A DNA stretch of 53,640 nt, from assembly GCA_964484305.1 (NCBI GenBank), contig CAZAEI010000005.1:1-53640 (forward strand). Reading direction: 5' to 3'. This DNA comes from an uncultured archaeon (GTDB lineage: Archaea; Aenigmatarchaeota; Aenigmatarchaeia; QMZP01). Under the pieces are notes generated by a model. The model searched no databases. It was not told the DNA's origin and saw nothing but the letters and a program-made list of their open reading frames with translations. Position numbers and translations under genes: made by a program. This document shows, piece after piece, positions 9,647-43,000 of the stretch; the stretch's first letter is position 1, and each line of letters starts with the position of its first letter.

Positions 9647-9712
9647 GAAACTCACCTTTATTTGGTTGGTGTTGGTTTATTTAAATGATATTGTCCTCGA
9701 AGCCCTGAATAC

Positions 9713-9727: not shown

Positions 9728-9791
9728 CCGTTTGTTTTTCAGGCGGCCACATAAAAGAAGGTTTTAAATACACATATCATAATTATCGAAC

Positions 9792-11478: not shown

Positions 11479-11483
11479 TGTAC

Positions 11484-17877: not shown

Positions 17878-18006
17878 GGAACGCACCATTAAGGCAAAAC
17901 ACAACATTACAATCTTGCCATGAAAACAATAAAAACACAGCACGGCCCGCGTTGTATATTATGGAGAGATATTTTCCTGCCTCCTGGTTTGCGGAAGGTT
18001 GGGAAA

Positions 18007-23096: not shown

Positions 23097-23228
23097 ATGA
23101 TGAAGAGAAAATGCCTAAAATGTGGACATAGGTGGGTTCCAAGAATAGATAATCCAAGGGTGTGTCCCAAATGCCATTCCGCATGGTGGGATAAGGAAAC
23201 TAAACATGCAAGTGGCAAAAACCGTTAG
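23097..23228 (+). CDS. 43-aa zinc-ribbon microprotein inside the IS, upstream of tnpB
   Basis: Translated by hand: MMKRKCLKCGHRWVPRIDNPRVCPKCHSAWWDKETKHASGKNR*. Two CxxC pairs; overlaps the tnpB start. Confidence 0.65.
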   Translation: MMKRKCLKCGHRWVPRIDNPRVCPKCHSAWWDKETKHASGKNR

Positions 23229-25195: not shown

Positions 25196-25630
25196 CTTGG
25201 ACCTTATACAGTCTATCACATCGATGTCTGCTTGAAATCCCAGGATATTTCTGGCCCTGCTGGTATCCGCCTGCGTCTCCTTTACATGGTTCTTTATGGG
25301 GGTTTCAACCAATCTATATTCTTTCAGGCCCACGGCCTCTATTATATCCCTGAGCGAGTGCACCCTTTCGGTTCCGATGTTCATCACATCCGAGACCACA
25401 CTGGAATTCATGGCTTTAATAAAGGCCTCCACCACATCATCAACATGAACAAAATCCCTCAACGTCTCCATATCATAGACATCAAATTGTTCTCCTGATT
25501 CCTTTGCCCAAATCATCTGCGAGGCTATATTTGCATGTCTTCCCTTACTTTTCTCATTATTACCATACACGCTAAACAGCCTGAGTCCGACCGACTCGAG
25601 CCCGAAGAAATTACGCCATGTACCATTCAT
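25181..25630 (-). pseudogene. C-terminal fragment of an NAD-dependent epimerase/dehydratase (extended SDR)
   Basis: GLRLFSVYG, RDFVHVDDVVEA, NIGT, ADTSRARNILGF. The N-terminal GxxGxxG and YxxxK regions are missing. Confidence 0.75.
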
Positions 25631-25994: not shown

Positions 25995-27464
25995 TCATGT
26001 GTATATCCTGAGCCTGCTGTAGAGCCGCCTTATCCTGTCATAGAGCATGTTGACATCCTGATAATCCTCTGCCTCATTGAGCTGGTCATACAGGGAGACT
26101 GTCTCCCTGTAGAGCTTCTTGGCGATGTCAAGGTTCCCCCTCTTTATGGCCTCTTCGATCTGGTCCATCAGGGAGTCCATGCTGCCCTCTATCGCAAGGA
26201 CAGGGCTAATCTGTGTCAGGGGTCTATTCTCTGTACCGGGCTGTGGCGGGCCCCCCTCTCGGACAGGTGCAGGGGGAATCCTTCCCCCGGTTTTTTTAAC
26301 ATCCTCCGTTCTCGGGAGAGCCTTCCTAGGAACTTCCCCGGACTCTGGCTTCTCCCGGACAGGGGCCTTGGGGATTTTCCTGACATGCTGTTGCCTTACC
26401 ATTTCAGAGAAATCCGGACCCGTTCCCTTTATTTCACCAGCGAACTCTATCCTCTTCTCCCTCACAGTCTGCGCTGTGGCCTCCCTGAGCATGTCCAGCT
26501 TGGCGCCTATCTCCTCCAGGTCATCCTTGGTCGCAAACATCCTGTCCAGCCTTGACTTGCCCACACTTTCCATGATACCCTTCATACCGCTTTCCTTTAG
26601 CGCTGTAAGAAGGCTATCCACAAGCTTCTTGAGTTCATATAGCTTGTCATCACCCTCTGTTCTCACCCGCTCGAACCTCTCCTCAACGGAGCCCTCCAAT
26701 TTCTTCAGGTCATCCTTCTTTGTGGTTTCATCGAACCTTGTCTCGAGCGTGTCAACAACCTTCATTATCTCGTGCATGGTCTCCTCATTGAATGCTATTC
26801 TGTCCTTGTAGCTCTGGAACTCCCCGAGCTTGTTGCTGAGGTCCGAGAACATAGTCTCTATCTTTCCGGCTGTTCTTGATGTGAACTTCCTGTCATCATC
26901 TATCTTACCCATCTTCTCCTTGAGCGTCTGAACAACACCAGACATCTCCTTGATTCCCCTGATGTTTTCCAGCACATCGGAGTTAGCCTTTATGTCCTTT
27001 CTCAGCTGCTTTATCTGTACAGCAAGGGCCTCTATTGTTGCCTGGTTCTTCTCAATTGACTCATCCTTCTCGGCGAGCTGCCTGGTTATCTTCTCGGGCT
27101 CCATACCCTCTGCCATCTCCTTTATACTGGAGAATCCCTTCTGGACCTCCCTGGTAACCCTGTCCCTCTCCATCACAGAGGACCTGAGCTCGCCAATCTC
27201 CTGGTTGAGGCCAGAGAGCCTCTCATCCACAGCCTTCCGGTAGTCTGCCATGGCCTCTATCTTTCCCTCAAGCTTCTCTGTCTTCAGAACAAGCATCTCC
27301 ACATCAGTGGCCTTTTCTCTGCGGGGCGGTTTCGGTACTGCCTCCACCTTGGCAGGGGTCTTCTTGAGCCTTACCTTCTTTTCCTCTTTCTTCTCAAGCT
27401 CCTCAAATTCTGAGGGGGTTATCACATTCTCTTCATTAGAGGATTTCTTGTCCTTTTCTTCCAA
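25995..27464 (-). CDS. Uncharacterised cytoplasmic long coiled-coil protein
   Basis: About 300 aa of E/K/L heptad-rich sequence, a Pro-rich linker and a helical C-terminal domain. TTG start after a GGTGA RBS, abutting the stop of the giant gene. Confidence 0.7.
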   Translation of the reverse strand: MEEKDKKSSNEENVITPSEFEELEKKEEKKVRLKKTPAKVEAVPKPPRREKATDVEMLVLKTEKLEGKIEAMADYRKAVDERLSGLNQEIGELRSSVMERDRVTREVQKGFSSIKEMAEGMEPEKITRQLAEKDESIEKNQATIEALAVQIKQLRKDIKANSDVLENIRGIKEMSGVVQTLKEKMGKIDDDRKFTSRTAGKIETMFSDLSNKLGEFQSYKDRIAFNEETMHEIMKVVDTLETRFDETTKKDDLKKLEGSVEERFERVRTEGDDKLYELKKLVDSLLTALKESGMKGIMESVGKSRLDRMFATKDDLEEIGAKLDMLREATAQTVREKRIEFAGEIKGTGPDFSEMVRQQHVRKIPKAPVREKPESGEVPRKALPRTEDVKKTGGRIPPAPVREGGPPQPGTENRPLTQISPVLAIEGSMDSLMDQIEEAIKRGNLDIAKKLYRETVSLYDQLNEAEDYQDVNMLYDRIRRLYSRLRIYT

Positions 27465-30400
27465 TCACTCACCCTTGCTTAAATGTTGCTCAAGGGACGT
27501 TATATAGATTTGCGCCATCCTGAAACGCCCCTGCTTCAGCTTGTCCCTGGCCAGCTTGAGCTCAAGCTCAATCTCAAATGTATCCTCTCCAGCCTTCTTG
27601 AGCCGCTCTATCTTTACATCTATCTCCTCGAGCCTCCCTGCAAAGTCACTGTAGAGCTCCATCTCCTTGTTGCTTATCTTGTGCGGATTATGCCACGTGG
27701 GCCTGAACTGGACAAAGTACGGCTTGCCGTCATTATACTTGGGGTTCTGAAGCATGCCCACGCCGACACCCTGCCTGGATATTTTCTTGGCATACTCCCC
27801 ACCGTACTTGGTCTCCACCTTCTGTATGTCTGTAATAGACTTGGTGTTTAGCTGCACCTCTGTCAGGACATTTCCTGCAATGGCCTCCTTGAAGTCAGCC
27901 AGGACCTGGCTGCACATTATGATGCCTATGCCCCACTTCCTGAACTCCCTGGCTGCCTTCTCCAGGGACACGTAGCCGCCCTTGCCCCCGTACTTCTCAA
28001 GAAGCCTGTGCACCTCATCAAATACCATTATCACCTTTAGCGTGGTGGATTCCTCCCAGTTCATGCTGAAGAGGGAGTCTATTATTATGCCAACGGCCTC
28101 ATCATACTGTCCTGGCTTGAGCTTGTCGAGCGCGAATACCGTGATTTCACCCGGGGCAAGGTATTTTTTAAATCCCTTCTTTATATCACGGAGAAGCTCC
28201 TGGGGGTCTGTCACCTCGAATATCATGCCCTTGAACGGCCTGGTCGACTTCGGGTCCATGCCGAACATGCTGTAGTATTTCATAAGGTTCCTGTCCTCCA
28301 GGGCCTTGACAAAGCCTGTCCACTGGGCAGTGGGGTCGAATACAATCACAGGGATGTTCTTGTCCAGGGCCTCCTCCACAAACACCGAGGCCCCCACTGA
28401 CTTGCCAGCCCCTGTGGCGCCGGCCACTATAATGTGCGTGGTGAGGTCCGCGGGATTGAACCACGCATTCCTGTCTGTTTCAGCAACCCTGCCTATCCAG
28501 AATGAGTCCCCGCTCTCCTGGGGCATCTTTCTGTAGTTAATGGGAAATATGTACCTGGCCCTTTCAGACTTCCACTTCTTATATAATCCCCACCCATAGT
28601 AACCTACGATACCCATGCCCAGCATGGAGAGTATAAGCAGTATGATTTTTCCCTCCCAGGAAGACCAGTAGGGCTCGACCAGATTGAACACTGCCACCTC
28701 ATTTACGGACTTCCCGTCTGCAAAATACGCCCATATATCCAGGTAGTACTGGCCCGTGGGATTGTTCCCTTTCATTTCTATGGATTTCGTGAACGCGAGG
28801 GACTCCTCCAGGAAGACATACTCGCTCGCATCAGCCACTACCCGCTCCCTCTCACTGTCCTTGATTATGTACACTATGCTGACATTGAACCCGGGCGGTA
28901 GTGCCAGGTTTTTGAGCTCCACACCAAACCTGAGCTTGCCCCCCGGGTTGACATTCGGGGTCAGTATATTGATGCTGAGTGAGACCAGGTCCTTGGCCTC
29001 AATGCTCACAGTCATGGTTATGGGTATCTCCTGGCTCCTCCCTGCAGCCGTGACCAGGATGCTTCCTGTATATGTCCCTGTTCCCATGGTATCCGGAACG
29101 GACACCACAACATCTATACTCTCACTGCCATTGTAGGCAATCTCTAGGAGGCTCTTCTCCGGGAATATGAAATCCTCCAGGCCCTGGACGTCCAGGGAGA
29201 CAGTCAGGTTCTCGCTGGCCTTGTTCTTTACCGAGAACAGATAGGTCTTGTTCTCCCCGGGGTGAATCCTGATGCTGCCTATCGAGGTAGTAACAGTAAA
29301 GGGTATGGTCGTTGTGATGGTGCTCACAATCGATGACCTGCTGCTACCCCCTGTACTCCCGGTCCCGTCATCGCCATTACCATTCCCGTTCTCGCCTGTA
29401 CCCTCCCACTCGGCCACCACATAGGACGATGCCCCTGTGGTATTGAAGCCTACCCTATCCTCTATAGTATCCACGCTCGCTGATATGGAGACATTCTCGA
29501 ACCCCCCTGTGCAGGACCTCTCGCTTATGCTCCAGTTCGAGCATCGGTAGACCCCCAGGCTGGACTCTGTTATAGAGCCTATTGGCGTATAGGTGTAGAA
29601 GTCCTGGAGTGCTTGGGTGTAGTCAAGACTGAAACTTGTGATGCTGCTGGTCCTTGTAAGGTTGTGCTCCAGGGCAATCACCATGATGGGGTTCTCGGCC
29701 CCTTCGGGAAGGGTAACCCCTATCTGGGTGGTGTTCTCTGCTGTATAGAGGTCCAGTGTTATCGGGCTGGTCAGGTTGTCTGGATACTCTACTCCGTGCT
29801 GGTTCACAGCAGAGGCATTAACATCCACCCCGTAGAGCAAGACCTCGTGTCCAGAGAACCCCAGCTTCGTGTCATAGACCCTTCTGTGGAGGGTGTGGTT
29901 GTAGCCGCCTGAACTGTTGGCACTGAATCTATCGTGTATCTCCCAGAGGGTGCCGCTCTTGTAGAACGTGAAGTTCGCCTCTATGGCCACCCCGTCCTTG
30001 TCCGCCAGCGTCCCGTTCAGGTCTATCGGATGGTAGAGGTCAAAGTACCCCATGAGCGATGATGAGGTATTGGCCTCGTTCCCTGTGCTGTCGTTGGCAA
30101 AAACCACGGCCCTGTAGTCCCCCTCTGTCAGGGAGGAGCTGAAATTAAACTTCCATGTGCCCGGGGATATCTCGTACATTCCGGACGTATTCCTGAGGGT
30201 TCCCTCATAATAAATCCATGCCCATGCGGATGTTACATTTTCATTGTCAGTCAGGTCAGATTCCATCACCACTTCGCTTCTGCTTCCAGAATATTGAAGG
30301 TTCCCCTCATCATCCACGTCCGAATTCACAACCCTTATGTCATGTATCTGCGGCGCGGTCACGTCCCTGTATATCACTGCATCCGTCTCTTCTGCCGGGA

Positions 30401-33400
30401 AGGATACATCCTCTGTTTCATAGTATCCCGTGAGGTTGAGGATGTTTTTTATGAAATTGCCCGGAATGTCGGGGGCGCTGCAGTTTATGTGCCAGAGCTG
30501 GTCAGTTAGATTATAGGCGCTCTGGACGTTGCCACAGAATAAGCCACCCACCACAACGTACCATGTTATGTTTTCATCCACAGGGCTGCCGCCCATGGTC
30601 GCATTGGCCGTTATGTTCAGGATATCCCACGGCACGATATCAGTAGCAGGGTTACTCTGGTTCGGGAAGAGTATGTCTATGGAGAAGTTTATAACATTGA
30701 GGGAGACAGAGACATTGATGCTCTGGGGGACGGCGTCCTCATTGTTGGCTATGGTTATGTTGGTCAGGTAGAGGCCCTCTGCATATTCGCCTGTGGTGTT
30801 GTGGTAGACCTCGAGGCTGAAGGCCGAAAACGGGGTTAGCGTGAAATTACTAGCCGAGACCGTTATGTTTCCCGTCCCGTTGGCCTGGTCATCCATGGTC
30901 ACATTGAATGACCAGTCTGCATCCTTGCTGTTTATCACCTGGATTGTCCCTATGCTCCCGTTGATGGGGGTTGGGTTGCGCCCTATGGTCTTGTTGAGAT
31001 GGGTATCAGAGACCCTCCAGTCAAGCATGCTCACATTGAGATTGAACACGAGGCTGTCCCAGCACAGGTTTGCCGGGCTGCAGTCCGAGCCAGTGGCATT
31101 TGCTGTTATGTTCGCGGTGTAGAGCCCCACTGTCGCATTATCCGGGACAGTCACTGTTATGTTCACCAGCTGCTTCCCGTCGTGGGGAATCACGCTTACC
31201 GGGGGCTCAGGCGAATAGGTCAGGTTCCACTGGCTGATCTCGCTTGCATTCCCGCCTGAAAGTGAGAAGTTAACAGAGAGCAGCTCGGTGTTCCCAAAGG
31301 ATTCCACAGTGAAGTTGCCCGCCAGGGCAGAGCCTCCCTTGGGCATTGTGTAGTTTAACTCACTCTCGACTATGTTGAGGACTGTGTTGTTCTCCACAAC
31401 AACCCCGGTGGCATTTGAGACATTCCCCTGGGAGGTATCCGAGTTTATCCAGGTCACATTCACATAGATATCCTTGAAGCCCGCTGTGGCCAGGTATGTG
31501 ACATTTACAACAGAGGTCCTGTTGCAGCTCTCTGCGGGCGGTATGGGTGGGCAGTTCACGGTCTCTGCGTGGATGCCTCCTGATGTGAGAGATGTGTTTA
31601 TCCCCACAACGACATCGTACATGCTCTCTGTAGCGCCCGTGTTTGTTATGTTGATGTAGAGGTAGTATGTACTGTTGAATATCTTGGTCAGGTTCCCGGC
31701 CGGCGTTGGGGGCGTCAGGTCTGTCCCCAGTTCCGCTGTGGTTGTTCCGGAGCTTATGTTGAACACTATCTCTGCGCTGTTGTTATCGCTCGCATTATAG
31801 AATATATCTGAGTCATTCGTAATATTGCAGACTATGCTGTGGTTGCCCTCTGAATCAGAGGAGTTTACCCAGTTTATGAGGGACACCCCATCAGAATCCG
31901 TGATATTGGAGCCTATATAAACCCCGTCCCCCCAGAAGCTCACATTGTGGCCCTCGAGCGGCTCTGAGATATTGGCATCCCAGACATAGCAGAACACATC
32001 CATACTGGCGTTCTGCCTGCACACCCAGGTATCATTATAGGTGCAGTTTGTTGATGATATGTTGCCTGCATCCAGGCTGCTCCACCCGTATATATATACA
32101 TAGAGATTCTCAACATCAGGCTTGTAGCGCTCTCCTGAGGCATTGGCAGCCACCCTCCTCAACCCAACAGTCTCATTCAGGGGAATTGTCCATGTTATGT
32201 TGTCAGAATGGTTCAGGGGTGTTTCAGAGAGTATTGACACAGTGTGCGGGTATCCCGAGTGGTAGTTTACGCAGTCCCCGCTGGAATTTGCCAGGCAGAC
32301 GTAGTCTATGTGGACATGGGAAGCGCCACCTTCACCCCCACCATCGCCATAGTCATGAACCGTGATATTGACCCAGAGCGCCGATGAGAAGGAGGCATTG
32401 TAGCAGACCTCCTCGAGCCATACACCGGTTGTGTTGTCAAGCTCGCACATACCAGAGCCAGCATATAGTCTTATGTACGCGTCATTGGCGAACTCCCCGG
32501 TGGGTTTGTACCTTATCTTTATCCCGTCCTGTCCCAGGGGCCAGCCCGCGGAAAGGCTGGCGCTCTGGAGGGCCGGGTCATCTGACCCTTTATTTTCTGA
32601 TGAGAGATAGAGTGAATAACTCCCATTGGTCTCATTGCCCTCCTGCCTGATTTCGCACTGGCAGTACTGGCCTGTGCAGTTCGAGGAGAAGCACCCCCAT
32701 GGAAGAATCACACCTGACTCAAATCCCCCGTTCTCCAGATAACCAAACTCCTCCTGCTCATCAGAGCGGTTGTAAACAACCTCATAGGTCAGGTTCTCCC
32801 ACCCTGACTGGTTGACCAGAAAGACAAGCTCTGAATAGCTGTTGAAATATTCCTGCGACCAATTTATGACAGTTCTGCTGCTGTCGTTCCATGCATTGAT
32901 TCTGCTTGGCACATCCACACCATTCAGGAGGACCCTGGTGTGGTTTATGTCCCAGTCCCCGAAATCGATGTTCCGGGCCTCCAGACCGCTGGCGTTCACT
33001 ATCACCGGAAAGGTCTGCTCATCATATCCAGGGGTCTTGTTTACAGCTGCCTCTAGCCTCCTCTTCCACTTTACAGACCAGTTAACAGAGTAGTTTCCAG
33101 GGCTGCAGAGCCCGCACGTGTCGTTCACACTCGAATTGAAGCCCGCACCATTGCCCCTGTGGAAGAGGCTGTAATCCTGCGGCTCCAGTATGGTGATATT
33201 TAACTCATCGTGCAGGGAGACATTACTCCAGTCCATTTCATTGAGGATGGAGTAGCTCCCGTTCGGCTCTGTCAGGGTCACATTGACCAGATAGTCCTGT
33301 CTTGAATACCCGCACGGAGGGGTCCAGGATATATTGCAGCGCCCGTACTCGGTTGTGTTACTGGAATCCAGATACGTATAATTGAACCAGAAGCTGCAGT

Positions 33401-36314
33401 TGAACCCCGACTGGTTGACATCAAGGCCGTACTGGTCCACCAGCCCGGCCTCGAGGCGGTTGCTCGAGTTCCTGTGAAGGATTCCCCCATCCTCCGGCGC
33501 TGTGAGGCTTATGTTGACCCTCCCGCTTACTGTAAGGACAAAGCCACTGGAGTTCGAATCATTATAGTAGGTGTCATCCCAGACCCCAACCTTCCAGGTC
33601 TGGTTCCCGGCCGAGTAGTTCCCGTCCGGGGTGAAGTGGAAGACACAGTAACCCGATGAATTTGTAGAGCTGCTGTTACCCCCATCAAAACCCGAGCCAT
33701 TGTATGTCACCCAGAGTGTGCAGCTGACGCCCCCCTGGACCCATGTCTCAGTGTCAGTGTCGTTTATCATTACCACAAGCTCCACAGACTCTGACCTGTT
33801 CACCGAGCTCTCGTTGCCAGACACATAGACAACCTCGGTGCTGTGCTTCCTGGCCAGGGGCCCCCAGTATATGATGGTGTTCCGGGAGGAGTGCATTGGC
33901 CAGCCCGAGGAATTGAAGTCCTGATACTGGAACCCATACTTATTCACCCCTGACCAGTCCTTGTCCGAGGACATGTTGAACCAGGCTGTGCCATTGCCTG
34001 TTATATTGGTTGTGCTCCCATTGAACCATGAACCCATGTTCTCCAGCCAGTACCAGAGCGTGACGCTCACGTTGTCCCCGTCCGTGTCATTGACAAAAAC
34101 AGAGTAGTTGAACCACTCTCCCCATAGGCTGTCGTTCAGCGTCACGTTCGGGCTGCTCAGGTTCGCAGGAAGATTGGTGGCCCCGCCTGCCTGGTAGCTC
34201 ACACTGGAATTGGAATAAGGCTGCACCCACCTGAAGAATGTGTCCTTCTTGCAAACATAGAATGTGTCAGAACCGCAGCTGAACGGGGCGTATACAGGAC
34301 TCCCGAAGTCGCATGAGGAATCGTCCTGCTGTGGTGTTATGTTGCATGCCTGGCCAGACCAGGTGACATTCAGGAACAGCATGCCCTTGATTGAGGAATC
34401 ATCAACAGTGGTGTTTCCCGTTATGTTATAGAATGTTGTATTGGTCTCGTTCCATATGTTTATCGTCTTGCTGGAAAGGAAGCAGTCGGTCTCATTTGTA
34501 TAGGAATACCCTGATTCATTGCCCTTCACAGGCACGGCCGATGCCATGCTGTCATCCCAGAAATGGAACGGCTCAGGGAGCGGTCCTGCCTCATTAATCG
34601 TGAAGTCCGGCACATCACATGTGTTGTCCGGGCCCACTGCAGCGGTCTGGCAGGAACTCCCGTTGAAGTCGCACCTGCTGGCAGAGCCCGGAATCTTTAT
34701 GTACCTGACCTCAATGTCATGGTCCGGGCCTGCAGGGAAGCTCACGTTCCTGACCTCATATCCCACACTCTCGTTAACCCGGATATTCCATGTCCTTGAC
34801 GACGTGTTCGTGAGATTGGCATAGCTTACCACACCGCTGGCGTTATAGGAATATGATATATTCAGGCCGGATATATTGAGCCTTCCCTTGGCATCCGAGT
34901 GAAAAATAAGGCTGGTGTTGCATAAACTCTCTCCGCAAGAATCAAGTGCATCCTGGAACTCCCCCGCTATCCCAGTAACGGTTTGCATGGCCCTGAGCTT
35001 CCCTGACTTGTTCCAGTTGTATCCATCATCACCCCCCACGTCCAGCGAAACATTGGTTGGGAAGTAATCGAAATTGAAAACGTAAAGGTTTCCGTCTGAG
35101 ATTGTGGGGACATCACCTGCAAGCATCTCGTTCCCTATATCATTTGTAACGTCTCCTATAGCCACTGTTCTGACTATCTTCCCGGTCTGGTAGCTCCAAA
35201 TCAGATCCCCCGTTGAATCCAGTGTCAATATATCCCCGTTCTCCAGGCCCGCAACGATTTCGTTTCCCGGATATTCTTCAGTTGAGTCATCAATAGCAAC
35301 GTCTCTTACAATCGAACCTGTGGAATAGTTCCAGAGTTCATCACCACTCGAGTTGATAAGATATATCCTGGTGTTCGTCCCAAGGACTATCTCATCATTC
35401 TGGTCCGAGGTGATGTTGCCCGCTCCGACGCTGTTGATGTTAGAGACACTCTTACTCCAAAGGGTGTTTCCCTGTGAGTCAAGAACATAAACATTGGAAT
35501 CCGTGCCCACAACCGTTTCATTGCCTGAGGAGGAGTTTACATCACCCAAAGCAATCTCATTTATCGCCCCTGTGAAACCTGTTGAGTTCCATGCCAGGGT
35601 CTGGTTGTCCCAGTATACATAGACAGTGCTGGAATCCGCAGCGACTATCTCATTAATCTCGTCTCCATCCAGGTCTCCTATCTCCAAAGAATTAACTGCG
35701 TTTGATGGTCCAGCTGAGACATTGAAAGTCCACGCAACGGTCCCTCCCGCATCATTACAGTCTATTATATAAACGCTATTGTTCGAGCTCCCTGTCCCGG
35801 CCACAACCTCATCTCCAGGATTATTGGTCACATTTCCGACATCAGTAGCCAGAACCTCGTAGCTTCCTCCAAGAGAAAGGCTCCATATCAGGGTTCCGTT
35901 CTCCCCGTAAAGAACCCTTATAAGGCCCTCGGCTCCATCGGTTCCAACCACCGTCTCATTCCCATTGTGGGTTGTGATGTTTCCCACAGAGAGGCCCCTC
36001 AACCCAAGGAGGTTAACGGTCTCTGTATAGATTGGCGTCATTATCCCTGTCAGGCTCATGGTTGCGTTCAAAATTGTGGAGTTCTTCGGTACCTGAACAT
36101 AATAGGTCTTGTTCCCCCCTAATATTGGGAAATCGTGTATCTGGAAATAGCCAGAATCATTGAAAGTATCTTGCTCAAACGGGAAAACAGGACTGGCCAG
36201 GTCGAGGACAAACCCCTTCTGGACAGCTGCTGTTATCTCTGGGCTTCTGTACGCAACCAGGAGAAGCAGGAATATTGCTACAACTACGGCTAACCCCGCC
36301 CTTTTTGATACCAT
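27465..36314 (-). CDS. Giant (2949 aa) surface protein fused through a TM helix to a HerA/VirB4/FtsK-like (DUF87-like) ATPase
   Basis: N-terminal signal/TM, FG-GAP-like repeats (IGDLDGDEINEIV etc.), long N/S/T-rich beta-sandwich region, TM (IILLILSMLGMGIVGYYGW). Then HIIVAGATGAGKS, MVFDEVH, REFRKWGIGIIMCSQ. Confidence 0.88.
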   Translation of the reverse strand: MVSKRAGLAVVVAIFLLLLVAYRSPEITAAVQKGFVLDLASPVFPFEQDTFNDSGYFQIHDFPILGGNKTYYVQVPKNSTILNATMSLTGIMTPIYTETVNLLGLRGLSVGNITTHNGNETVVGTDGAEGLIRVLYGENGTLIWSLSLGGSYEVLATDVGNVTNNPGDEVVAGTGSSNNSVYIIDCNDAGGTVAWTFNVSAGPSNAVNSLEIGDLDGDEINEIVAADSSTVYVYWDNQTLAWNSTGFTGAINEIALGDVNSSSGNETVVGTDSNVYVLDSQGNTLWSKSVSNINSVGAGNITSDQNDEIVLGTNTRIYLINSSGDELWNYSTGSIVRDVAIDDSTEEYPGNEIVAGLENGDILTLDSTGDLIWSYQTGKIVRTVAIGDVTNDIGNEMLAGDVPTISDGNLYVFNFDYFPTNVSLDVGGDDGYNWNKSGKLRAMQTVTGIAGEFQDALDSCGESLCNTSLIFHSDAKGRLNISGLNISYSYNASGVVSYANLTNTSSRTWNIRVNESVGYEVRNVSFPAGPDHDIEVRYIKIPGSASRCDFNGSSCQTAAVGPDNTCDVPDFTINEAGPLPEPFHFWDDSMASAVPVKGNESGYSYTNETDCFLSSKTINIWNETNTTFYNITGNTTVDDSSIKGMLFLNVTWSGQACNITPQQDDSSCDFGSPVYAPFSCGSDTFYVCKKDTFFRWVQPYSNSSVSYQAGGATNLPANLSSPNVTLNDSLWGEWFNYSVFVNDTDGDNVSVTLWYWLENMGSWFNGSTTNITGNGTAWFNMSSDKDWSGVNKYGFQYQDFNSSGWPMHSSRNTIIYWGPLARKHSTEVVYVSGNESSVNRSESVELVVMINDTDTETWVQGGVSCTLWVTYNGSGFDGGNSSSTNSSGYCVFHFTPDGNYSAGNQTWKVGVWDDTYYNDSNSSGFVLTVSGRVNISLTAPEDGGILHRNSSNRLEAGLVDQYGLDVNQSGFNCSFWFNYTYLDSSNTTEYGRCNISWTPPCGYSRQDYLVNVTLTEPNGSYSILNEMDWSNVSLHDELNITILEPQDYSLFHRGNGAGFNSSVNDTCGLCSPGNYSVNWSVKWKRRLEAAVNKTPGYDEQTFPVIVNASGLEARNIDFGDWDINHTRVLLNGVDVPSRINAWNDSSRTVINWSQEYFNSYSELVFLVNQSGWENLTYEVVYNRSDEQEEFGYLENGGFESGVILPWGCFSSNCTGQYCQCEIRQEGNETNGSYSLYLSSENKGSDDPALQSASLSAGWPLGQDGIKIRYKPTGEFANDAYIRLYAGSGMCELDNTTGVWLEEVCYNASFSSALWVNITVHDYGDGGGEGGASHVHIDYVCLANSSGDCVNYHSGYPHTVSILSETPLNHSDNITWTIPLNETVGLRRVAANASGERYKPDVENLYVYIYGWSSLDAGNISSTNCTYNDTWVCRQNASMDVFCYVWDANISEPLEGHNVSFWGDGVYIGSNITDSDGVSLINWVNSSDSEGNHSIVCNITNDSDIFYNASDNNSAEIVFNISSGTTTAELGTDLTPPTPAGNLTKIFNSTYYLYINITNTGATESMYDVVVGINTSLTSGGIHAETVNCPPIPPAESCNRTSVVNVTYLATAGFKDIYVNVTWINSDTSQGNVSNATGVVVENNTVLNIVESELNYTMPKGGSALAGNFTVESFGNTELLSVNFSLSGGNASEISQWNLTYSPEPPVSVIPHDGKQLVNITVTVPDNATVGLYTANITANATGSDCSPANLCWDSLVFNLNVSMLDWRVSDTHLNKTIGRNPTPINGSIGTIQVINSKDADWSFNVTMDDQANGTGNITVSASNFTLTPFSAFSLEVYHNTTGEYAEGLYLTNITIANNEDAVPQSINVSVSLNVINFSIDILFPNQSNPATDIVPWDILNITANATMGGSPVDENITWYVVVGGLFCGNVQSAYNLTDQLWHINCSAPDIPGNFIKNILNLTGYYETEDVSFPAEETDAVIYRDVTAPQIHDIRVVNSDVDDEGNLQYSGSRSEVVMESDLTDNENVTSAWAWIYYEGTLRNTSGMYEISPGTWKFNFSSSLTEGDYRAVVFANDSTGNEANTSSSLMGYFDLYHPIDLNGTLADKDGVAIEANFTFYKSGTLWEIHDRFSANSSGGYNHTLHRRVYDTKLGFSGHEVLLYGVDVNASAVNQHGVEYPDNLTSPITLDLYTAENTTQIGVTLPEGAENPIMVIALEHNLTRTSSITSFSLDYTQALQDFYTYTPIGSITESSLGVYRCSNWSISERSCTGGFENVSISASVDTIEDRVGFNTTGASSYVVAEWEGTGENGNGNGDDGTGSTGGSSRSSIVSTITTTIPFTVTTSIGSIRIHPGENKTYLFSVKNKASENLTVSLDVQGLEDFIFPEKSLLEIAYNGSESIDVVVSVPDTMGTGTYTGSILVTAAGRSQEIPITMTVSIEAKDLVSLSINILTPNVNPGGKLRFGVELKNLALPPGFNVSIVYIIKDSERERVVADASEYVFLEESLAFTKSIEMKGNNPTGQYYLDIWAYFADGKSVNEVAVFNLVEPYWSSWEGKIILLILSMLGMGIVGYYGWGLYKKWKSERARYIFPINYRKMPQESGDSFWIGRVAETDRNAWFNPADLTTHIIVAGATGAGKSVGASVFVEEALDKNIPVIVFDPTAQWTGFVKALEDRNLMKYYSMFGMDPKSTRPFKGMIFEVTDPQELLRDIKKGFKKYLAPGEITVFALDKLKPGQYDEAVGIIIDSLFSMNWEESTTLKVIMVFDEVHRLLEKYGGKGGYVSLEKAAREFRKWGIGIIMCSQVLADFKEAIAGNVLTEVQLNTKSITDIQKVETKYGGEYAKKISRQGVGVGMLQNPKYNDGKPYFVQFRPTWHNPHKISNKEMELYSDFAGRLEEIDVKIERLKKAGEDTFEIELELKLARDKLKQGRFRMAQIYITSLEQHLSKGE

Positions 36315-36390: not shown

Positions 36391-36606
36391 CTACTTTGCG
36401 TTCTTGATGACTTCCCTGAGGCTGGCTACTTCCTTCCTGAGCTCCCTCATCTCGTTGCTGAGCTGGAGCTCCTCCTCATCGAACTTCCTTGTTATCACCC
36501 TGAGTTGCCTGAACTCGAACTCCAGGATGACGAGGTAGACAACCACCACCGTGGAGAATATGACGAGCAACTCCAGTATGGGTACGTCAATGCCGAATAT
36601 GTACAT
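36391..36606 (-). CDS. 71-aa bitopic membrane protein with a C-terminal coiled coil
   Basis: Hydrophobic LELLVIFSTVVVVYLVIL followed by heptads; its ATG directly follows the upstream TAG. Confidence 0.7.
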   Translation of the reverse strand: MYIFGIDVPILELLVIFSTVVVVYLVILEFEFRQLRVITRKFDEEELQLSNEMRELRKEVASLREVIKNAK

Positions 36607-39600
36607 CTAGATACCCCCGTACGCCTGCGGCCTCCTTGACCTTACCTCCCTCAGACGCCTGAAGGAGAAGTATATCAATATCAGAGACACCATCACTATC
36701 ATGAGAATCTCAAGGGATTCGGGAATGCCCCCTGACACACCCATTACATAGAAGTTCCCTGTGGCAGAGGCCAGGACAGCAAAGTCCTCCCTGAATCTTG
36801 CCGAGGCGACATACATGCCGGACGGGGCAGCAGCGGGAATCACGAACTTCTCGTATGTCTCGGTCTTCTCCAGGGGCTCCATCCCCTCCAGACTCTCTAT
36901 GTTGGTGAATATCACATCCATTCCAGGCGTGTATATCTCAACCTCAAGGTAGGGATAATCAATCTTCTCCCCCCCGTTAATCACCAGGATCTCCAGGCTC
37001 ACGGGGCTGTTGAGGTTATACCTGTCCCTGTCAGGTGTTATTATAATAGTCGGGTAGCTCTCCTTGTATATCACCGTTATGGTCTTGAGCAGGCCTGCAT
37101 CCATCCTATCCACGGTTATGCTGCTAGTCTCCGGGCCCCCTGTGAATGGAAGCCTGTTGCCAAAACCATCCCTCACCTCCTCCACGTTCTGATAGGCAAT
37201 GGGAAGATTCAGGATAACATTCTCATAGCTCTCCTGGGCAAAGCTCTTGAGGTAGACATCCATCTTGAGCCTGACCTTCTTTTCAGGCAGCTGCTCCAGA
37301 ACCTCGATATCCCTGTCTATCTCAAGGACAGGGGGCGTCAGCACAGTAACCTCATAACTCCTGGTCTCAAATGCATTTATCGAGCCCTGCCATTGCATGA
37401 CCCTCCTTCCCTGTGAGTCCTTTGAGAATACAACAACCTCTTCTATCCTCCTTCCACTTTCATCAAAATAGCTTACATATCCGTCTGTTGCATCATCAAA
37501 AACCACGGCTTCGAAATCTGAACTGAGCCTTCTCGGATTCGGGTTGTATACATCAAAGTCCTTGTTCCATACAGCGGGCTTGCCCACAAGCACGGTCTTG
37601 GACTGCTTGAGTTCCCCCTCATCTATTGTCAGGGGTATGTTGGGCTCTGGTATGACTACCTTAACCACTCCATAGAGTGTGGTTGCCAGGGATGCTCCTG
37701 TATCAGGGTCGAATGCAGCTATCATGACAGGAAGCACATATGCCCCGGGGGTGGTGAAGTTTATCTGGTAAATAACCTCTATGTATTCATCATTCGTGAG
37801 GTTCCAGCCCTGGTATGTCCCGTTCACGAACTCGAACATCTGGACAGTTAGGCCATCTGAAAGGCTTGTCGTCCCGTTATCGGTTATATGGTAATCCACA
37901 CCATAGGTCAATACAGTGCCGTTGCGAATCACAACAGCATCGCCATTAGAGAAATTACCCCAATAGTCAGTATAGCTTATGGTGTTGTCAGGGACATAAT
38001 CCATGAACTTTATTCCTGATATGCCAGAACCCATGGTGTCCTCAACAGAAATGTTTATGGTTGTATTAATCAGCGTGGGGGTGCCGGGTGTGTAGGCTAT
38101 GAGGTCCTTGTAGCCAGTTATCCTCTTTCCTGACACAGTGACTGTCTGGTTGTTGAAGTATTCCCTGTCCTGGGTGTCAGAACTCGAGTTGAGTTGCCCG
38201 ATGCCCGAGAATACGTATTCATCACCGGTTGTCATCGCAATATCGGATGTGACCTTATATGATATCGTCAGGTTGTCGCTGTCGCTGCCACCGTTCGAAT
38301 TAAAGGTGTGACCGACCTTGTCCGATGTGCCCCAGAATACGCAGTTGGGAAGGTCGTATATGCTGACATTAACAAGACCGTCAGAGCTTTCTGTGGGGTC
38401 TGTTATCTCCAGCACGCAGTTGCTGTCGTTCTTGAGCCTGTAGGTTTCGTTCAGGTATATCACGACATCGTCCTGTATGTCCCAGCCGCTCCCCCTCCAG
38501 TACCCCAGATGTGTTTTGCTGGGAACATAGGAAAGAATCTGTACAAAATGGGGCTCTGTCTCATTGGCACCCACATTGTGAAGGGTGTCGTTTATTGTCA
38601 CATTTTCACCACCCATTTCAGGGGAGATCGTGCCAGAGACTGACTTTATACCATCCAGGTCGACCATGTATAGCACGGGAAGGTCCAGTGTTGTGTTTAT
38701 GTATGTTATATTGTTCTCGCTGTTTGTGGAGTTCCATATCACCTCCCAATTAAAGTAGACAGCTATATAGGGCTTGGAACCCGACGATGTATTGAACATG
38801 GTCTTGTTCGATGACCTTGAGGCATCGGTTGTGTATATCCTCCCATCATCGGGCGTTATGAGGTCAGTGGTCCCCGGAGTCACATTGAATCTCCCTGTCT
38901 GGTTGGCCGTGTCATAGGGCACACCCGATGACTGTATCTCATATATACCCCATTCGCTTATGTTGTATGTTAGGTTGTAGCCAGTGTCTGCTGCATCGCC
39001 CATGTTCCTTATGAGGCCCCTCACATACCAGAACCCCCCGTTTGAGGAGAGGTCAACACCATGCCTGATTGGTCCCCTAGTGAACTTGTCAGAAACCGTT
39101 ACCCCCGAGAACATATAGCTCGTGTTTGAATAGGTGGCGTTCTGACCGTCCCCTGAACCGGGCTGCAGGTCCACGCTGTCCGTCGTTCCGCTTATGTGAA
39201 CCCCTCCCGTTATGTTCAGCACGACAGTCAGGTTGACAGTCGAGGCTTTCCCTACATCCACGCTCGACCATGTTATGTAATCATTGAGTGTGCCAGTATC
39301 ATCACCACCATCATCAGAGACGGATACTGAACCGTCCTGTGCCGATGTGTCTATAACCGCAGGCTCGTCATTACCCTCAACATCCTTTACAAAGTTGATG
39401 ATTGATGTGATATCAACAAGGTCCCTTGTCGAGCTCGGGTTAGTGAGGCTGAAAACCAGGGTCATGTTGTTGTCAGGGTCATCTATGTTGGACTCATCAT
39501 AGAGGTCGTATCCCCCCCTGTCATTGGAATAATAAACCGAGAGGTTTATGGTCGGGGCAATGTTGGCAACATCATTGTCTATTGTGTAGCTGGTTGAGGA

Positions 39601-39966
39601 GTAGTCACCGGTGATGTTGACATAGAGGAGACTCCACTTGTCATCGGTGGGAAAGGATGTCAGAACATCCTGGTATACGGTGTCGTTATCTATGTCGGTA
39701 TTTGTGTTGTATCCGGAGTCAAGAGTCACCCTCATGTACTGGAGCACATCCTCATTGTTGGGAACAGACGCAAAGAACTGTCCGGTCCTTGCGGCAGTGG
39801 TCTTCACTGTCCCGTTGTGATAGTATTCGCCTGTCACATCCTCCTGTATCAGGAGCTTGGGCCCGTATATCTGGGCACGGGCACCCCCCAGAAGCACCGC
39901 TGTTAATATGAAGACAACACCTGTAACTAGAAGAATCCTTCTTGCCATCCACAAAGAAAGCCGCAT
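36607..39966 (-). CDS. Large C-terminally anchored surface (S-layer/adhesin-like) protein, paralog 1
   Basis: Signal peptide, Ig-like beta-rich body with many NxS/T sequons, C-terminal TM plus basic tail. Start at 39966 or 39948. Confidence 0.75.
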   Translation of the reverse strand: MRLSLWMARRILLVTGVVFILTAVLLGGARAQIYGPKLLIQEDVTGEYYHNGTVKTTAARTGQFFASVPNNEDVLQYMRVTLDSGYNTNTDIDNDTVYQDVLTSFPTDDKWSLLYVNITGDYSSTSYTIDNDVANIAPTINLSVYYSNDRGGYDLYDESNIDDPDNNMTLVFSLTNPSSTRDLVDITSIINFVKDVEGNDEPAVIDTSAQDGSVSVSDDGGDDTGTLNDYITWSSVDVGKASTVNLTVVLNITGGVHISGTTDSVDLQPGSGDGQNATYSNTSYMFSGVTVSDKFTRGPIRHGVDLSSNGGFWYVRGLIRNMGDAADTGYNLTYNISEWGIYEIQSSGVPYDTANQTGRFNVTPGTTDLITPDDGRIYTTDASRSSNKTMFNTSSGSKPYIAVYFNWEVIWNSTNSENNITYINTTLDLPVLYMVDLDGIKSVSGTISPEMGGENVTINDTLHNVGANETEPHFVQILSYVPSKTHLGYWRGSGWDIQDDVVIYLNETYRLKNDSNCVLEITDPTESSDGLVNVSIYDLPNCVFWGTSDKVGHTFNSNGGSDSDNLTISYKVTSDIAMTTGDEYVFSGIGQLNSSSDTQDREYFNNQTVTVSGKRITGYKDLIAYTPGTPTLINTTINISVEDTMGSGISGIKFMDYVPDNTISYTDYWGNFSNGDAVVIRNGTVLTYGVDYHITDNGTTSLSDGLTVQMFEFVNGTYQGWNLTNDEYIEVIYQINFTTPGAYVLPVMIAAFDPDTGASLATTLYGVVKVVIPEPNIPLTIDEGELKQSKTVLVGKPAVWNKDFDVYNPNPRRLSSDFEAVVFDDATDGYVSYFDESGRRIEEVVVFSKDSQGRRVMQWQGSINAFETRSYEVTVLTPPVLEIDRDIEVLEQLPEKKVRLKMDVYLKSFAQESYENVILNLPIAYQNVEEVRDGFGNRLPFTGGPETSSITVDRMDAGLLKTITVIYKESYPTIIITPDRDRYNLNSPVSLEILVINGGEKIDYPYLEVEIYTPGMDVIFTNIESLEGMEPLEKTETYEKFVIPAAAPSGMYVASARFREDFAVLASATGNFYVMGVSGGIPESLEILMIVMVSLILIYFSFRRLREVRSRRPQAYGGI

Positions 39967-40031
39967 ATTAATATTTAATGGTATGGTAAATATATAAAAC
40001 TTATACAAAACTTGTCTAATTTCCAGGATAT

Positions 40032-43000
40032 TTATCTTAATTCCCTCAGCTTCCTCTTGAGCTCCCCTATACCCTCCGGCCTCTTCCTCCTCCAGAACCT
40101 GAACAGCAGGTAGCCTATTGCTGCCAGGGCCACGGCCAGGAATACCATCCAGCTCAATGAAACAATGGTCCTTTCAGGGCAGTTCACATAGAAGTCTGAG
40201 TGGTCTGTAAGTATGGTCTGGAAGTCCTTCTTGAACCTGCTATAGACCGAATACTTCCCGTCAGAGAAGCTCCTCAAGTCCACCGAAAAGGGCAGCCTGA
40301 CCTCTTCCCATGGCCAGACATCCTTCATCTCCACAAGCTGGGCATTCATGGTCTTGAGGTGGGGACTGGGTCCCACCACCTCAATCTCCAGGTAGGAGCC
40401 TGTCTCCCTTTCAGAGGGGATTACGAACACCGTTATGTTGGCATAATCGCTGCACCCGTGCATCACCGCACCCATGGCAGTCAGAAGTATTGGCGGGACC
40501 TCTGTATAGACTATCGTGAGCTCCCTCTTCCGGCCAGCCTCCATCCTTCCCAGGAATATCTCTGTGGTAGAGTTGTCATATTCACTGTAGTTTAGCAGGT
40601 TCTCCCCCTCCATCACATATACAACGTTGCCGGTCCCTGACTTGAACAGGAGAGACACCCCGCTATAGACCTCGAGTGCAAAGTTCTCCACAGTGGTATT
40701 GACCACGAATCTTATCTCCCTCTCACCCGATTCCAGGACATTCACAACCCTCTTGGTTTCCAAGACAGGCGGTGTTACAGCCTCCAAGACATAGGTCTTG
40801 GTCTCACCAGACTTCAGCCTGAACGTGATGTCCACATGGGTTGTTTCACCCTCCTTGAGAGCCAGGGATTCCCTGTCTCCCCCCTCCCGAATGACATGGG
40901 CGCTCAGGGTGTCAGGAAAGACCTCCAGCCTCATTAAGTGCTCCACAGAGACACTGTTTGGATTATGAACCGTCAGGCCCTTTGTCCATCTTACAGGGAC
41001 GCCCACACGCACCCCCTCTACTTGCCATCCCCCATCCACGACCTCAAGGTCCTGAAGAATCCCCTCCCTCCTGACAGGGATGTACATATCCTCAAATATG
41101 TATTTATCCTCATAGTAGTTGTAGCCAAACACCCTTGTTATAAGGAAGCTGGTTCCCACAGGAACCGTGGTTTTGTAGCTGATCTCTATCTTGTCCCCAT
41201 TGAACAGGTTCAGGCTCTCCTCAAGCAGCCCGCCTGATGTAATCTTGGTTATAAGGTATTCCCTGTGCCTTCTGCCATTCACCAAGGTCATGCCGTTATC
41301 GGTCATCTTGTAGTCATTTCCCGGGTTCCACTCAATCCATTTCCCCGAAGAGTTTTCATATATCCTGAATGAGAGGGATGAGATGTCAAGGCTCCCGTAC
41401 TCGGGTATGTAAATAACGGCCTTGATATCCTTTACCCCCTTGTTCCCTGTATCAATTATATTATATCTTGCCAGAACACGGACGAGGTTATCTGCTATAA
41501 AGTAGCCCTCTCCCATCTCCCTTGCTATGTCAGCATACATGGCGGGTTCAACAGGCCCTCCGCCAGGGCCACCCGGTTCAGGCTCTCCACCAACCCCCGG
41601 AATGACCACATCCTGGCATACATTCTTGGTCACAGGCGTGCCCGAGAGCGTGACCAGTGTGGATGTCTGGCAGAACTGATATGTATGTGTGCTGGCATGG
41701 GAGCCCCCTGCCACGTCATACTCAAGCCTTATATCCTCATTCTGCTGGAGGCCGTGGCCCAGAAGAGAAGTTAAATTGTTTATGCTTACATTCACAAAAC
41801 CATCGTTCAGGGTGGTGGCTGCCTGGGTCATTATGGAGACCTGGGTGGTTATCTCTGTCTGTCCAGATGCGTTTATATAGAACACCCTGACATCAGATGG
41901 GGCCCAGTTGTTGCTTGTACCCCCGGCTGACTGATGTGGTATGACAGAGCCTATACTAACAGAACCGACTGAGAGGCCTGAATGCCCGATGTGCCTGGCC
42001 AGGTCCTGTACCGACAGGCCCGTTCCGCTCTCGGTGCTGTACCCCACAACTACGCTCTTGTCCACCCATGCATCTATCTCATAGAGCACAGGCAGGCTTA
42101 TGGTAGCCTGGCTCATGCTTGAATAATATGACGAACCCCAGACTACCTCCCAGTCCCAGGACGTGCTGTAATATCCTCCCTTGTCCTGCATTCCCGGAAG
42201 GCCTGTGTCATACCAGTCCGTATATTTGGTTTCGCCTGGGTTGAAGGGATATATCTCCTCACTTGAGGATATGACCGGAGAGCCCTGACCTATCTGATAC
42301 AGCCCCCATCCGTGTATCCTGTAGTCCAGTCCCAGTGCCATGTTCCTGATGAAACCCCTCACTATCCATGTATCCATGGTGAGCATATCCACACCCACCC
42401 TCACCGGGCCGCGGGAGAACCTGTCAACAAAGCTTATCCCAGTGGGGGTGGATGTTCCTGTACTTGTGTGGGTGGCCTGGCTCGTGGTCTCCTGGTCAAG
42501 GTCCACATACATGAAGTTTTCATTAAAGTTCACATCGGGTGTGATGTATCCCCGGAAGTATATCTCCACATCCACGCCGGCTGACAGGGGACCAGTCCAG
42601 GAGAGCATATCAAAGAAGCCGTCCCCGTCAGAATCCCAGGAATCACTATTCCCTGAGGTGGGGGATACCCCATAGAGGTGAATGGAATCATTGAGACCAA
42701 GCGTGTTCCTGGCGAACCTCAGGTAGACAGAGACCCCGTTCAGGTCATGCGTGGAGTTTATGGTCAGATCGAAGCTGAATGAATTGGTTCCGCCCGAATA
42801 GATGTCCCTCCCCCCGGCATCGTTTGCATACTCCATGCCAAGGTATATCACCGGCATCACACCACCGGTTATATTATAGCTTATGTTGCTCTCGCTGCTT
42901 GTTGTGTTGACATAGAGCCTGGTCCTGTCACCGGGGCTTGGTGATGCCGCCACCCCCCTGTAGGTAAGGGTTGACTGAAGGTTTGTGTTGGCGGTTCCAG

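Follow-up and report, generated by a model that had tools for sequence, protein, structure and literature searches.

A SPEARE-type giant surface protein with a membrane-tethered, HerA-like ATPase in an Aenigmatarchaeota-type archaeon

Introduction

Why would an archaeon join a giant, adhesin-like surface protein to a cytoplasmic ATPase within one polypeptide, and what could such a protein do? The question is raised by a gene at 27465..36314 on the minus strand of contig CAZAEI010000005.1, which comes from an uncultured archaeon. The window that we analysed is the whole stretch of 53,640 nucleotides from this contig. A first-pass annotation, made from the sequence of the window, had proposed that the protein forms a contact-triggered conduit or motor for host attachment and macromolecule transfer in a symbiotic archaeon. 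How DPANN archaea attach to their hosts and take up nucleotides, lipids, or proteins is a central question, and the SPEARE genes are the most conspicuous candidates.

SPEARE proteins of Nanohaloarchaeota were described as mostly extracytoplasmic, with a transmembrane (TM) segment near the C-terminus and a conserved intracellular part that was taken to be a type III restriction enzyme (Hamm et al., 2019; PMC6642349). The same study demonstrated the production of SPEARE by proteomics, reported that the ectodomain becomes separated from the part with the TM segment and the ATPase, and reported similar sequences in Woesearchaeota, Aenigmarchaeota, Micrarchaeota, and Altiarchaeales. Later, Reva et al. 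(2023; PMC10266531) described a signal peptide, an immunoglobulin (Ig) domain, two β-propellers, about 75 Ig-like domains, a TM segment, a cytosolic VirB4/TraG-like ATPase, and a coiled coil, and they proposed that the protein combines adhesion with secretion of the kind performed by a type IV secretion system (T4SS). They also rejected protease and endonuclease domains for the founding members. Finally, a metagenome-assembled genome (MAG) from a mud volcano, KA24, is reported to encode a SPEARE protein of 3,105 amino acids (aa) with a C-terminal TM helix (PMC8470020, on the MAGs KA24 and KA27).

Here, we report that the gene in the window is a chromosomal member of the SPEARE family. Its architecture has been published, and it is not a new type of system. 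The first-pass annotation had stated that ATPases of this kind are normally separate from surface proteins, which does not hold here: the fusion is the published SPEARE architecture (PMC6642349; PMC10266531; PMC8470020), and it recurs at 584 loci or more. The annotation thus rediscovered a known family and, in essence, the interpretation of Reva et al. What we add is the HerA/CedD-like nature of the ATPase, a partner gene that adjoins it at most loci, a five-gene surface cluster, and, in other genomes, tandem paralogues in which a giant gene is followed by a short one.

A single protein that crosses the membrane once

The giant gene is one unbroken open reading frame (ORF) of 2949 codons with an ATG start; by our estimate, the probability of so many codons without a stop is about (61/64)^2949, or 1e-61. 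As the first-pass annotation had said, it joins an adhesin-like region to an ATPase. (This gene and the members of its cluster are all on the minus strand, as are the coordinates that we give for their parts.) Besides the ectodomain and the ATPase, the protein has a signal peptide, one TM helix, and a set of C-terminal helices.

Only two segments of the protein are hydrophobic. The first is the signal peptide or hydrophobic leader at residues 1-29 (36228..36314), with a Kyte-Doolittle window maximum of 2.28. The second is the TM helix at residues 2553-2575 (28590..28658), which corresponds to the long helix 24-56 of an AlphaFold 2 (AF2) model; that there is just one such helix had been recognised before. 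It is directly followed on the cytoplasmic side by KKWKSERAR, in agreement with the positive-inside rule.

The distribution of N-X-S/T sequons points to the same topology. The ectodomain of about 2,520 residues contains 163 sequons, as compared to 45.6 ± 5.9 in composition-preserving shuffles, which bears out the earlier description of a sequon-rich stalk of roughly 2500 aa, and the 377 cytoplasmic residues contain none. We place the ectodomain outside the cell and the C-terminal part in the cytoplasm because this asymmetry is common to all 20 orthologues, the window's included (81-199 sequons outside and 0-2 inside). Judging from these features, the ectodomain is exported by means of the signal peptide, and it is predicted to be heavily N-glycosylated.

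The identical 2949-aa protein is encoded on 12 assembled contigs of 20-200 kb. We also assembled an orthologue set of giants from genome loci, and 19 other genomes have closed, fully collinear orthologues of 2,909-3,106 aa. With the window's protein included, the 20 giants are collinear from the signal peptide to the stop codon, with an occupancy of at least 0.84 per 100-residue bin. SPEARE have been discussed almost only for Nanohaloarchaeota, and here they form a tightly conserved group of collinear orthologues of about 2,950 aa in Aenigmatarchaeota-type genomes.

Relationship to published SPEARE and size of the family

The window's protein is collinear over its full length with the 3,105-aa SPEARE of KA24 (L024 in our set of loci), and the ATPases are 59% identical. 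AQV86_02330 from Nanohaloarchaea SG9, which is listed among the SPEARE loci (PMC6642349), matches the window's ATPase at 50% identity, with 99% of the query covered (E = 3.3e-135). For a nanohaloarchaeal cluster of 7,878 aa, the identity is likewise 50%. If we consider only the family identity and the topology of the window's protein, we are highly confident of both.

To describe the family, the TM-plus-ATPase part was compared to 1.84 billion cluster representatives, which gave 936 relatives at E ≤ 0.001, of which 347 reach E ≤ 1e-30. Among the best 150 relatives, the majority are 1,000-7,900 aa long and match at their extreme C-terminus. In a scan of one genome per GTDB species, we found at least 584 loci of the ATPase family, and we analysed the best 80. 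Closed ORFs among these fall into classes of about 2,900-3,100, about 2,200, and about 550-730 aa. The closest relatives are from MAGs labelled Aenigmatarchaeota (L003 and L002, with ATPase identities of 86% and 76%), which is consistent with a source among the symbiotic (DPANN) archaea; the first-pass annotation had supposed a symbiotic archaeon.

Two of the loci are unusual. At L019, on an Aenigmatarchaeota chromosome (CP070801.1, about 9533-11194), two ORFs of about 260 aa each cover part of the ATPase match. A frameshift or a pseudogene could explain the split, as could an error in the sequence of this otherwise complete chromosome. L021 is a member on a 3.4-kb contig of a Heimdallarchaeota MAG, which reflects either the real distribution of the family or mis-binning.

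The ATPase

The P-loop ATPase core spans residues 2600-2875 (27690..28517) and is supported by Pfam, NCBIfam, AF2, and Foldseek. By motif reading, it contains a Walker A motif, GATGAGKS (residues 2632-2639; 28398-28421, where the first-pass annotation had put it at about 28400-28425), a Walker B motif, IMVFDE (residues 2762-2767; 28014-28031), the arginine-finger motif REFRKWG (residues 2789-2795; 27930-27950), and the SQ motif, CSQ (residues 2801-2803; 27906-27914). All four are invariant among 37 aligned family members, so the earlier reading of them as intact was right. Furthermore, the identity to orthologues per 100-aa bin is 57-69% in the cytoplasmic part and 25-45% in the ectodomain, or roughly twice as high in the ATPase. 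On this comparative evidence, the ATPase is catalytically intact and under strong purifying selection. Its cytoplasmic location, which had also been claimed, fits with the lack of sequons after the TM helix and with the positive-inside charge. In sum, the fusion is real and is present in relatives, and the ATPase is on the cytoplasmic side with conserved catalytic residues.

The first-pass annotation had called the ATPase HerA/VirB4-like, and only the first half of that label stands. Pfam's DUF87, the HerA central domain, is above its gathering score in the C-terminal 420 residues, HerA_C matches as well, and both are found in all 37 family members. An AF2 model of the TM-plus-ATPase part (built from the 37-sequence alignment; mean predicted local distance difference test [pLDDT] score of 89.3) consists of a long helix that includes the TM segment and a cytoplasmic extension, a RecA-like core, and three C-terminal helices. 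When this model was compared to the PDB with Foldseek, the HerA hexamer 4d2i came first (E = 1e-12), with 9x1m, 8wod, and 8xau next; in order, the matches were 4d2i, the T. kodakarensis HerA-NurA complex, SIR2-HerA, and DUF4297-HerA, and then DndH, the STIV2 B204 packaging ATPase, TcpA, and FtsK. Among the top 50 matches, the solved HerA structures are only 11-19% identical to the window's ATPase, and none of the 50 is a VirB4 structure.

The profile searches agree. In NCBIfam, CedD is the best family (37/37 members; best E = 2.4e-15), and the crenarchaeal HerA (HerA_Thermprot) also matches every member (best E = 1.6e-11); the VirB4_CagE model TIGR00929 matches one of the 37, and the VirB4 N-terminal domain PF03135 gave no match in the Pfam scans. 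Scores for the HerA models NF040937 and NF040819 are 29 bits (cut-off 800) and 18.5 bits (cut-off 970). The ATPase also has weak Pfam or NCBIfam matches to TrwB_AAD_bind, T4SS-DNA_transf, TraD, and TraC, and PF01580 (FtsK) weakly matches 13 of the 37 members. The ATPase part has no N-terminal HAS-barrel domain, as only the TM helix and about 55 residues precede Walker A, and we found no NurA or other nuclease partner among the neighbours of the gene. From these similarities, we assign the ATPase to a family of its own within the HerA clade of the FtsK-HerA superfamily, nearest to HerA and CedD rather than to VirB4.

The tail of the ATPase is a coiled-coil-like arrangement of three helices at residues 2882-2949 (27468..27671; helices 353-378, 384-398, and 402-418 of the model). 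It is modelled with a pLDDT of about 95 and carries a conserved LKxGxFxMAxIY motif in the family alignment.

We can also account for the original description of the intracellular part as a restriction enzyme. ResIII matches occur in 22 of the 37 relatives and fall on the P-loop region; by this profile evidence, the matches behind the "restriction endonuclease" reading are recurring there. Scans with Pfam and NCBIfam found no protease or endonuclease family in the giant protein, which does not disqualify it as a SPEARE because Reva et al. (2023) reject both domains for the founding members.

The ectodomain

A β-propeller is certain from its repeats and profile matches at the N-terminus of the giant protein (residues ~95-440; 34995..36032). 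Pfam's Beta-prop_CGLA exceeds its gathering score (38.6 bits vs. 26.8), and FG-GAP_3 falls short of its own (20.4 bits vs. 26.9; E = 8e-4). There are seven repeats of the type GDxxxDxxxE(I/V)VxG at a spacing of about 45 residues (one reads GDEINEIVAAD), which suggests seven blades. Homologues bear precomputed matches to FG-GAP, PQQ, or Itfg2 propellers, and distant relatives match PF01839 and PF13517. "FG-GAP-like", as the first-pass annotation had it, is a fair description.

The second recognisable module is a β-sandwich that begins at NGGFE (residues 1194-1354; 32253..32735) and had been called carbohydrate-binding-like. Pfam's CBM_4_9, a carbohydrate-binding module (CBM) family, scores 17 bits, which is below the gathering score of 25.9, and a profile of the orthologues matches TmCBM61 in the PDB with E = 0.005. 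The AF2 core (pLDDT 80-96) is most similar to CBM61 (2xom; E = 1e-7, TMt 0.61-0.67) and then to CBM4-2, CBM11, and CBM27. The modelled fold thus supports a jelly roll like that of CBM61 or CBM4, while the hidden Markov model stays below its cut-off. This module is the most variable stretch of the ectodomain among the orthologues (25% identity), and it is deleted in L023. Such variability is expected of a head that determines specificity, which this module may be.

The third is a membrane-proximal β-sandwich that ends in PYW/PFWT (residues ~2440-2548; 28671..28997) and is shared with the short members of about 625 aa. Its consensus in the family alignment is GxYY...DxF....PFWT, and it has Ig-type matches (FixG_C/NPCBM_assoc). 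The remaining ectodomain has only weak Ig-like matches (Big_13, NPCBM_assoc, FixG_C), and a sequence search with residues 501-1900 against the PDB gave no match. The orthologue alignment reveals conserved pairs of cysteines in the ectodomain. With the N-terminal 500 aa as the query, a word-indexed search for homologues yielded only five proteins.

A conserved core with a variable ectodomain

The short members of the family (551-730 aa) combine a signal peptide and one or two Ig-like domains with the PFWT-TM-RYxFP junction, the ATPase, and the tail of the giants, and they are accompanied by the same partner. Across the family, the ectodomain ranges from about 140 to over 7,400 residues. Comparison of the members therefore indicates that a membrane-anchored ATPase with a small Ig-like ectodomain and a coiled-coil partner is the conserved core, and that the adhesin is a variable add-on. 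This turns around the adhesin-centred view of the protein's evolution in the first-pass annotation: it is the ATPase core that is conserved.

The partner gene and tandem paralogues

The next gene downstream in the window (25995..27464) encodes a coiled-coil protein of 489 aa; the TGA stop of the giant gene and the TTG start of this one are immediately adjacent. Across DPANN lineages, 74 of 81 loci have a homologue right after the ATPase gene. In 73 of the 74, both genes lie on one strand, and the gaps between them are mostly −25 to +100 nt. The partner has no specific family, only generic coiled-coil matches (apolipoprotein, keratin, Baculo_PEP_C, and the arms of LmuB/JetC), and we found no mention of this gene in the SPEARE papers that we consulted.

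At 12 of the 80 loci, including those of Nanohaloarchaea, Woesearchaeota, and EX4484-52, there is a giant gene, a short paralogue, and the coiled-coil partner, in that order (L020, L031, L041, L045, L047, L053, L057, L058, L065, L075, L076, and L081). The shorter paralogue is 551-1,500 aa, and overlaps between the stop codon of one gene and the start codon of the next are frequent. Within a tandem locus, the ATPase domains are 65-91% identical, and at several loci they are sisters in a neighbour-joining tree, which suggests recent or repeated duplication or gene conversion. The "second VirB4/TraG ATPase" that Reva et al. noted downstream is probably a short paralogue of the SPEARE ATPase family. 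By analogy to the CedB/CedD pair, the giant and short ATPases of tandem loci are compatible with mixed rings. In the 53.6-kb window itself, we found no short ATPase paralogue.

We discarded one candidate for a further conserved neighbour: an ORF cluster near the ATPase genes of 58 loci turned out to be antisense ORFs within the ATPase and partner genes.

Surrounding genes

Upstream of the giant gene are three more genes of the cluster. A 71-aa ORF (36391..36606) with one TM helix and a short coiled coil lies between the giant gene and an upstream surface protein, and it is kept at the equivalent position in 11 related loci, at 31-86% identity. The surface protein (36607..40008) is about 1113-1133 aa long and has a signal peptide, many sequons, a C-terminal TM anchor, and no Pfam family; in 11 related loci, its homologue is directly upstream of the giant gene and on the same strand. 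The next gene (40032..43229) encodes a sequon-rich paralogue of 1065 aa, which clusters with the 1133-aa protein and again has a signal peptide, a C-terminal TM anchor, and no Pfam family; about 19 loci have a homologue of it near the giant gene, and its orientation varies. Taken together, homologues of the two paralogues adjoin the giant gene in about 20 related loci, and the two may serve this lineage as envelope or S-layer proteins. In the window's clade, then, there is a conserved five-gene surface cluster: the partner, the giant, the 71-aa ORF, and the two surface proteins of about 1,100 aa, of which loci of the clade have either one or both.

The rest of the window is ordinary archaeal chromosome, with genes for Cdc6/Orc1, a family B DNA polymerase, an aminoacyl-tRNA synthetase, and a P-type ATPase. 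Cdc6/Orc1 (11478-12689, plus strand) and the polymerase (15223-17943, minus strand) are less than 6 kb apart, perhaps close to a replication origin. A 370-aa ORF some 3 kb from the cluster (23206-24318, plus strand) has a Cas12f1-like TNB domain (E = 9e-17), as in TnpB-type, transposon-associated nucleases. Directly upstream of the cluster and on the opposite strand, there is a free-standing 449-aa ORF with LAGLIDADG endonuclease domains (43398-44747, plus strand). Downstream of the coiled-coil gene, a 149-aa ORF (25181-25630, minus strand) matches only the C-terminal part of NAD-dependent epimerase/dehydratase (profile positions 157-240) and may be a gene fragment. Scans of the window for tRNAs and Rfam families gave no match.

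A proposed function

In our proposal, the ligands of the ectodomain would be glycans or proteins of a host cell, and the ATPase and the coiled-coil partner would jointly form a ring under the membrane, as in the solved HerA and FtsK relatives. The ring is predicted to be a hexamer because the trans-acting R/K motif is invariant and the top fold matches are hexameric. Driven by ATP, it would move a polymer at the contact site, through a channel that would need further membrane components. We favour import of DNA because the close structural relatives are all DNA translocases and because CedB and CedD, which are TM-anchored ATPases of the HerA clade, are required for DNA import in Sulfolobales (PMC11868833). 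Finally, the ATPase and its partner would be the ancestral core machine, and the adhesin would be a lineage-specific extension of a small ectodomain. Taken as a whole (a SPEARE member with a host-binding ectodomain, a HerA-clade ring that moves a polymer with its partner, and an ancestral ATPase core), this explanation seems to us evenly balanced between right and wrong. The coupling of host contact to polymer translocation is its more tentative part, and there our confidence is clearly below even.

Several observations count against this proposal. First, one TM helix per protomer gives six per hexamer, and we found no polytopic protein like CedA or VirB6, and no pilin, nuclease, or relaxase, in the conserved cluster. 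With six helices and no polytopic partner, a self-sufficient channel for DNA or protein is unlikely, which weighs against the hexameric conduit of the first-pass annotation as a pore on its own. Second, the NCBIfam scores for CedD (39.7 bits) and CedB (21.5 bits) compare poorly to the cut-offs of 600 and 700. As all of the NCBIfam scores are far below the family cut-offs, the analogy to Ced is a resemblance and not membership. Third, some members are outside of the DPANN labels: L049 is on a 1.9-Mb contig of Ca. Hydrothermarchaeum profundi, which we take to be free-living, and some of these members exceed 3,700 aa. Similarly, L053, L057, and L081 are in a MAG labelled Methanosarcinales. Such occurrences are either real or due to mis-binning. 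Because of these relatives, the family is not strictly tied to DPANN symbionts.

A broader version of the proposal is that the membrane-tethered, HerA/CedD-like core, with its partner and, in many lineages, the short paralogue, is a DPANN-wide motor that draws DNA or other polymers from the host into the symbiont at contact sites. We consider this unlikely. If it were true, then the giant ectodomains would be interchangeable host-recognition heads of that motor, the motor would be the missing route by which biosynthetically deficient archaea acquire nucleotides and DNA, and the whole would amount to a minimal translocon coupled to an adhesin, which neither the Ced system nor a T4SS resembles. 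In any case, the soluble ATPase domain, the partner, and the CBM-like head are concrete targets for nanohaloarchaeal co-cultures.

Alternative explanations

The main rival to contact-coupled translocation is that the protein does not transport anything: the ring and its coiled-coil partner might make up a cytoplasmic anchor or lattice and position, cluster, tension, or turn over giant proteins of the envelope. The nearly constant presence of the coiled-coil partner and the single TM helix would fit with this, as would the clade's arrangement of the gene with two TM-anchored surface proteins of about 1,100 aa and the 71-aa TM/coiled-coil protein. Also, the short forms with their tiny ectodomains and the non-DPANN relatives suggest a housekeeping function in the envelope. 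On the other hand, to our knowledge all of the characterised rings of the HerA/FtsK superfamily move a polymer through the central pore. The catalytic conservation shows that ATP turnover matters, though not for what. We judge such an organising or anchoring role to be improbable, and the other alternatives are less likely than it is.

A second alternative is the published one, in which the protein acts as a T4SS-like "straw": the giant binds the host and a VirB4/TraG-like ATPase exports effectors into it (PMC10266531). The weak matches to TrwB_AAD_bind, T4SS-DNA_transf, TraD, and TraC, and the second ATPase paralogue after the giant gene in nanohaloarchaeal, Woesearchaeota, and other loci, could be taken as support. 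But that second ATPase is a short paralogue from the same family and not a distinct VirB4, the VirB4 N-terminal domain was not detected, and TIGR00929 matches a single member. Similarly, HerA is in the top ranks of the fold comparison and VirB4 is nowhere in its top 50, and the conserved cluster does not include VirB6/CedA-like, VirB2-like, or coupling-protein genes. Export by this route is quite unlikely, in our view.

Third, the protein could be an FtsK-like pump for chromosome segregation or cell division that happens to carry surface domains. It is a membrane-anchored ATPase of the HerA/FtsK superfamily, FtsK is absent from these lineages, the short form has a wide distribution, and Cdc6/Orc1 and family B polymerase are encoded in the window, though about 10-16 kb away. 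However, genomes have several paralogues each, with giant, fast-evolving, adhesin-like ectodomains; there is no FtsK gamma domain, PF01580 is a weak match to a minority of members (13/37), and the distribution is mostly DPANN. We consider this very unlikely.

Fourth, a HerA-based module for defence against viruses is suggested by PADLOC matches to mad8 (E = 1.3e-12) and to several other defence-type HerA models, and by the Foldseek matches to SIR2-HerA and DUF4297-HerA. These matches reflect the shared HerA fold, and no Sir2, DUF4297, or nuclease effector is adjacent. Further points against it are the membrane tether of the ATPase, with about 2,520 aa of glycosylated ectodomain on the other side, and the distribution of the gene, which is not patchy: many reduced genomes have it, conserved and in synteny. 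With only generic similarity to HerA and no effector, we reject this explanation as scarcely credible.

Last, an assembly artefact that merged an adhesin gene with an ATPase gene has a negligible chance of being correct and is ruled out by the 12 contigs that carry the same protein and by the 19 closed orthologues that are collinear from N-terminus to stop codon, as well as by the 347 cluster representatives with E ≤ 1e-30 and the C-terminal position of the ATPase in most of the best 150 relatives.

Comparison with known systems

The window's protein can be compared with four groups of known systems. The membrane-anchored pumps FtsK/SpoIIIE, TrwB/VirD4, TcpA, and EssC/EccC also combine a membrane anchor at the N-terminus with a ring ATPase of the FtsK-HerA superfamily in the cytoplasm, and the window's ATPase has weaker fold or profile matches to TcpA, FtsK, and TraD. 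However, pumps of the FtsK or type IV coupling protein type have two to four TM helices and almost no extracellular part, whereas the window's protein has one TM helix and a huge ectodomain, and its ATPase does not have the all-alpha domain, the gamma domain, or the tandem ATPase domains of these pumps.

HerA shares with the window's ATPase the Walker A and Walker B motifs, the ExRKxG arginine-finger motif, and the SQ sensor, as well as the combination of DUF87 and HerA_C. In contrast to HerA, the window's ATPase is tethered to the membrane, has no HAS-barrel, and has no NurA, Sir2, or DUF4297 partner.

CedB and CedD (PMC11868833; PMC9905601) are similar in that a TM anchor is N-terminal to a cytoplasmic ATPase of the HerA clade, and their cooperation as two paralogues parallels the tandem pairs of giant and short genes in this family. 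They differ in that CedB and CedD have no large ectodomain, and in that this family lacks a VirB4-like N-terminal domain and has no CedA/CedE (VirB6-like) gene or Ced pilin gene nearby.

The closest comparison is with SPEARE themselves, and even here there are differences. At 2,949 aa, the window's protein is smaller than the nanohaloarchaeal giants (5,998 to 9,409 aa). Its ectodomain is a fixed, multi-domain arrangement that is collinear in 20 genomes, while nanohaloarchaeal SPEARE have arrays of nearly identical Ig repeats. Unlike the SPEARE giants, it has no protease, laminin-G, or toxin domain that was detected in Pfam or NCBIfam scans. Its locus has the coiled-coil partner immediately downstream and no short ATPase paralogue, in contrast to the tandem SPEARE loci, and it comes from an Aenigmatarchaeota-type, non-halophilic lineage. 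What the window's protein shares with SPEARE is the plan of the whole molecule: a signal peptide, an N-terminal β-propeller, a run of β-sandwiches, a single C-terminal TM helix, and a cytoplasmic ATPase with a coiled-coil tail, in which the ATPase is 49-59% identical to those of the nanohaloarchaeal and KA24 members.

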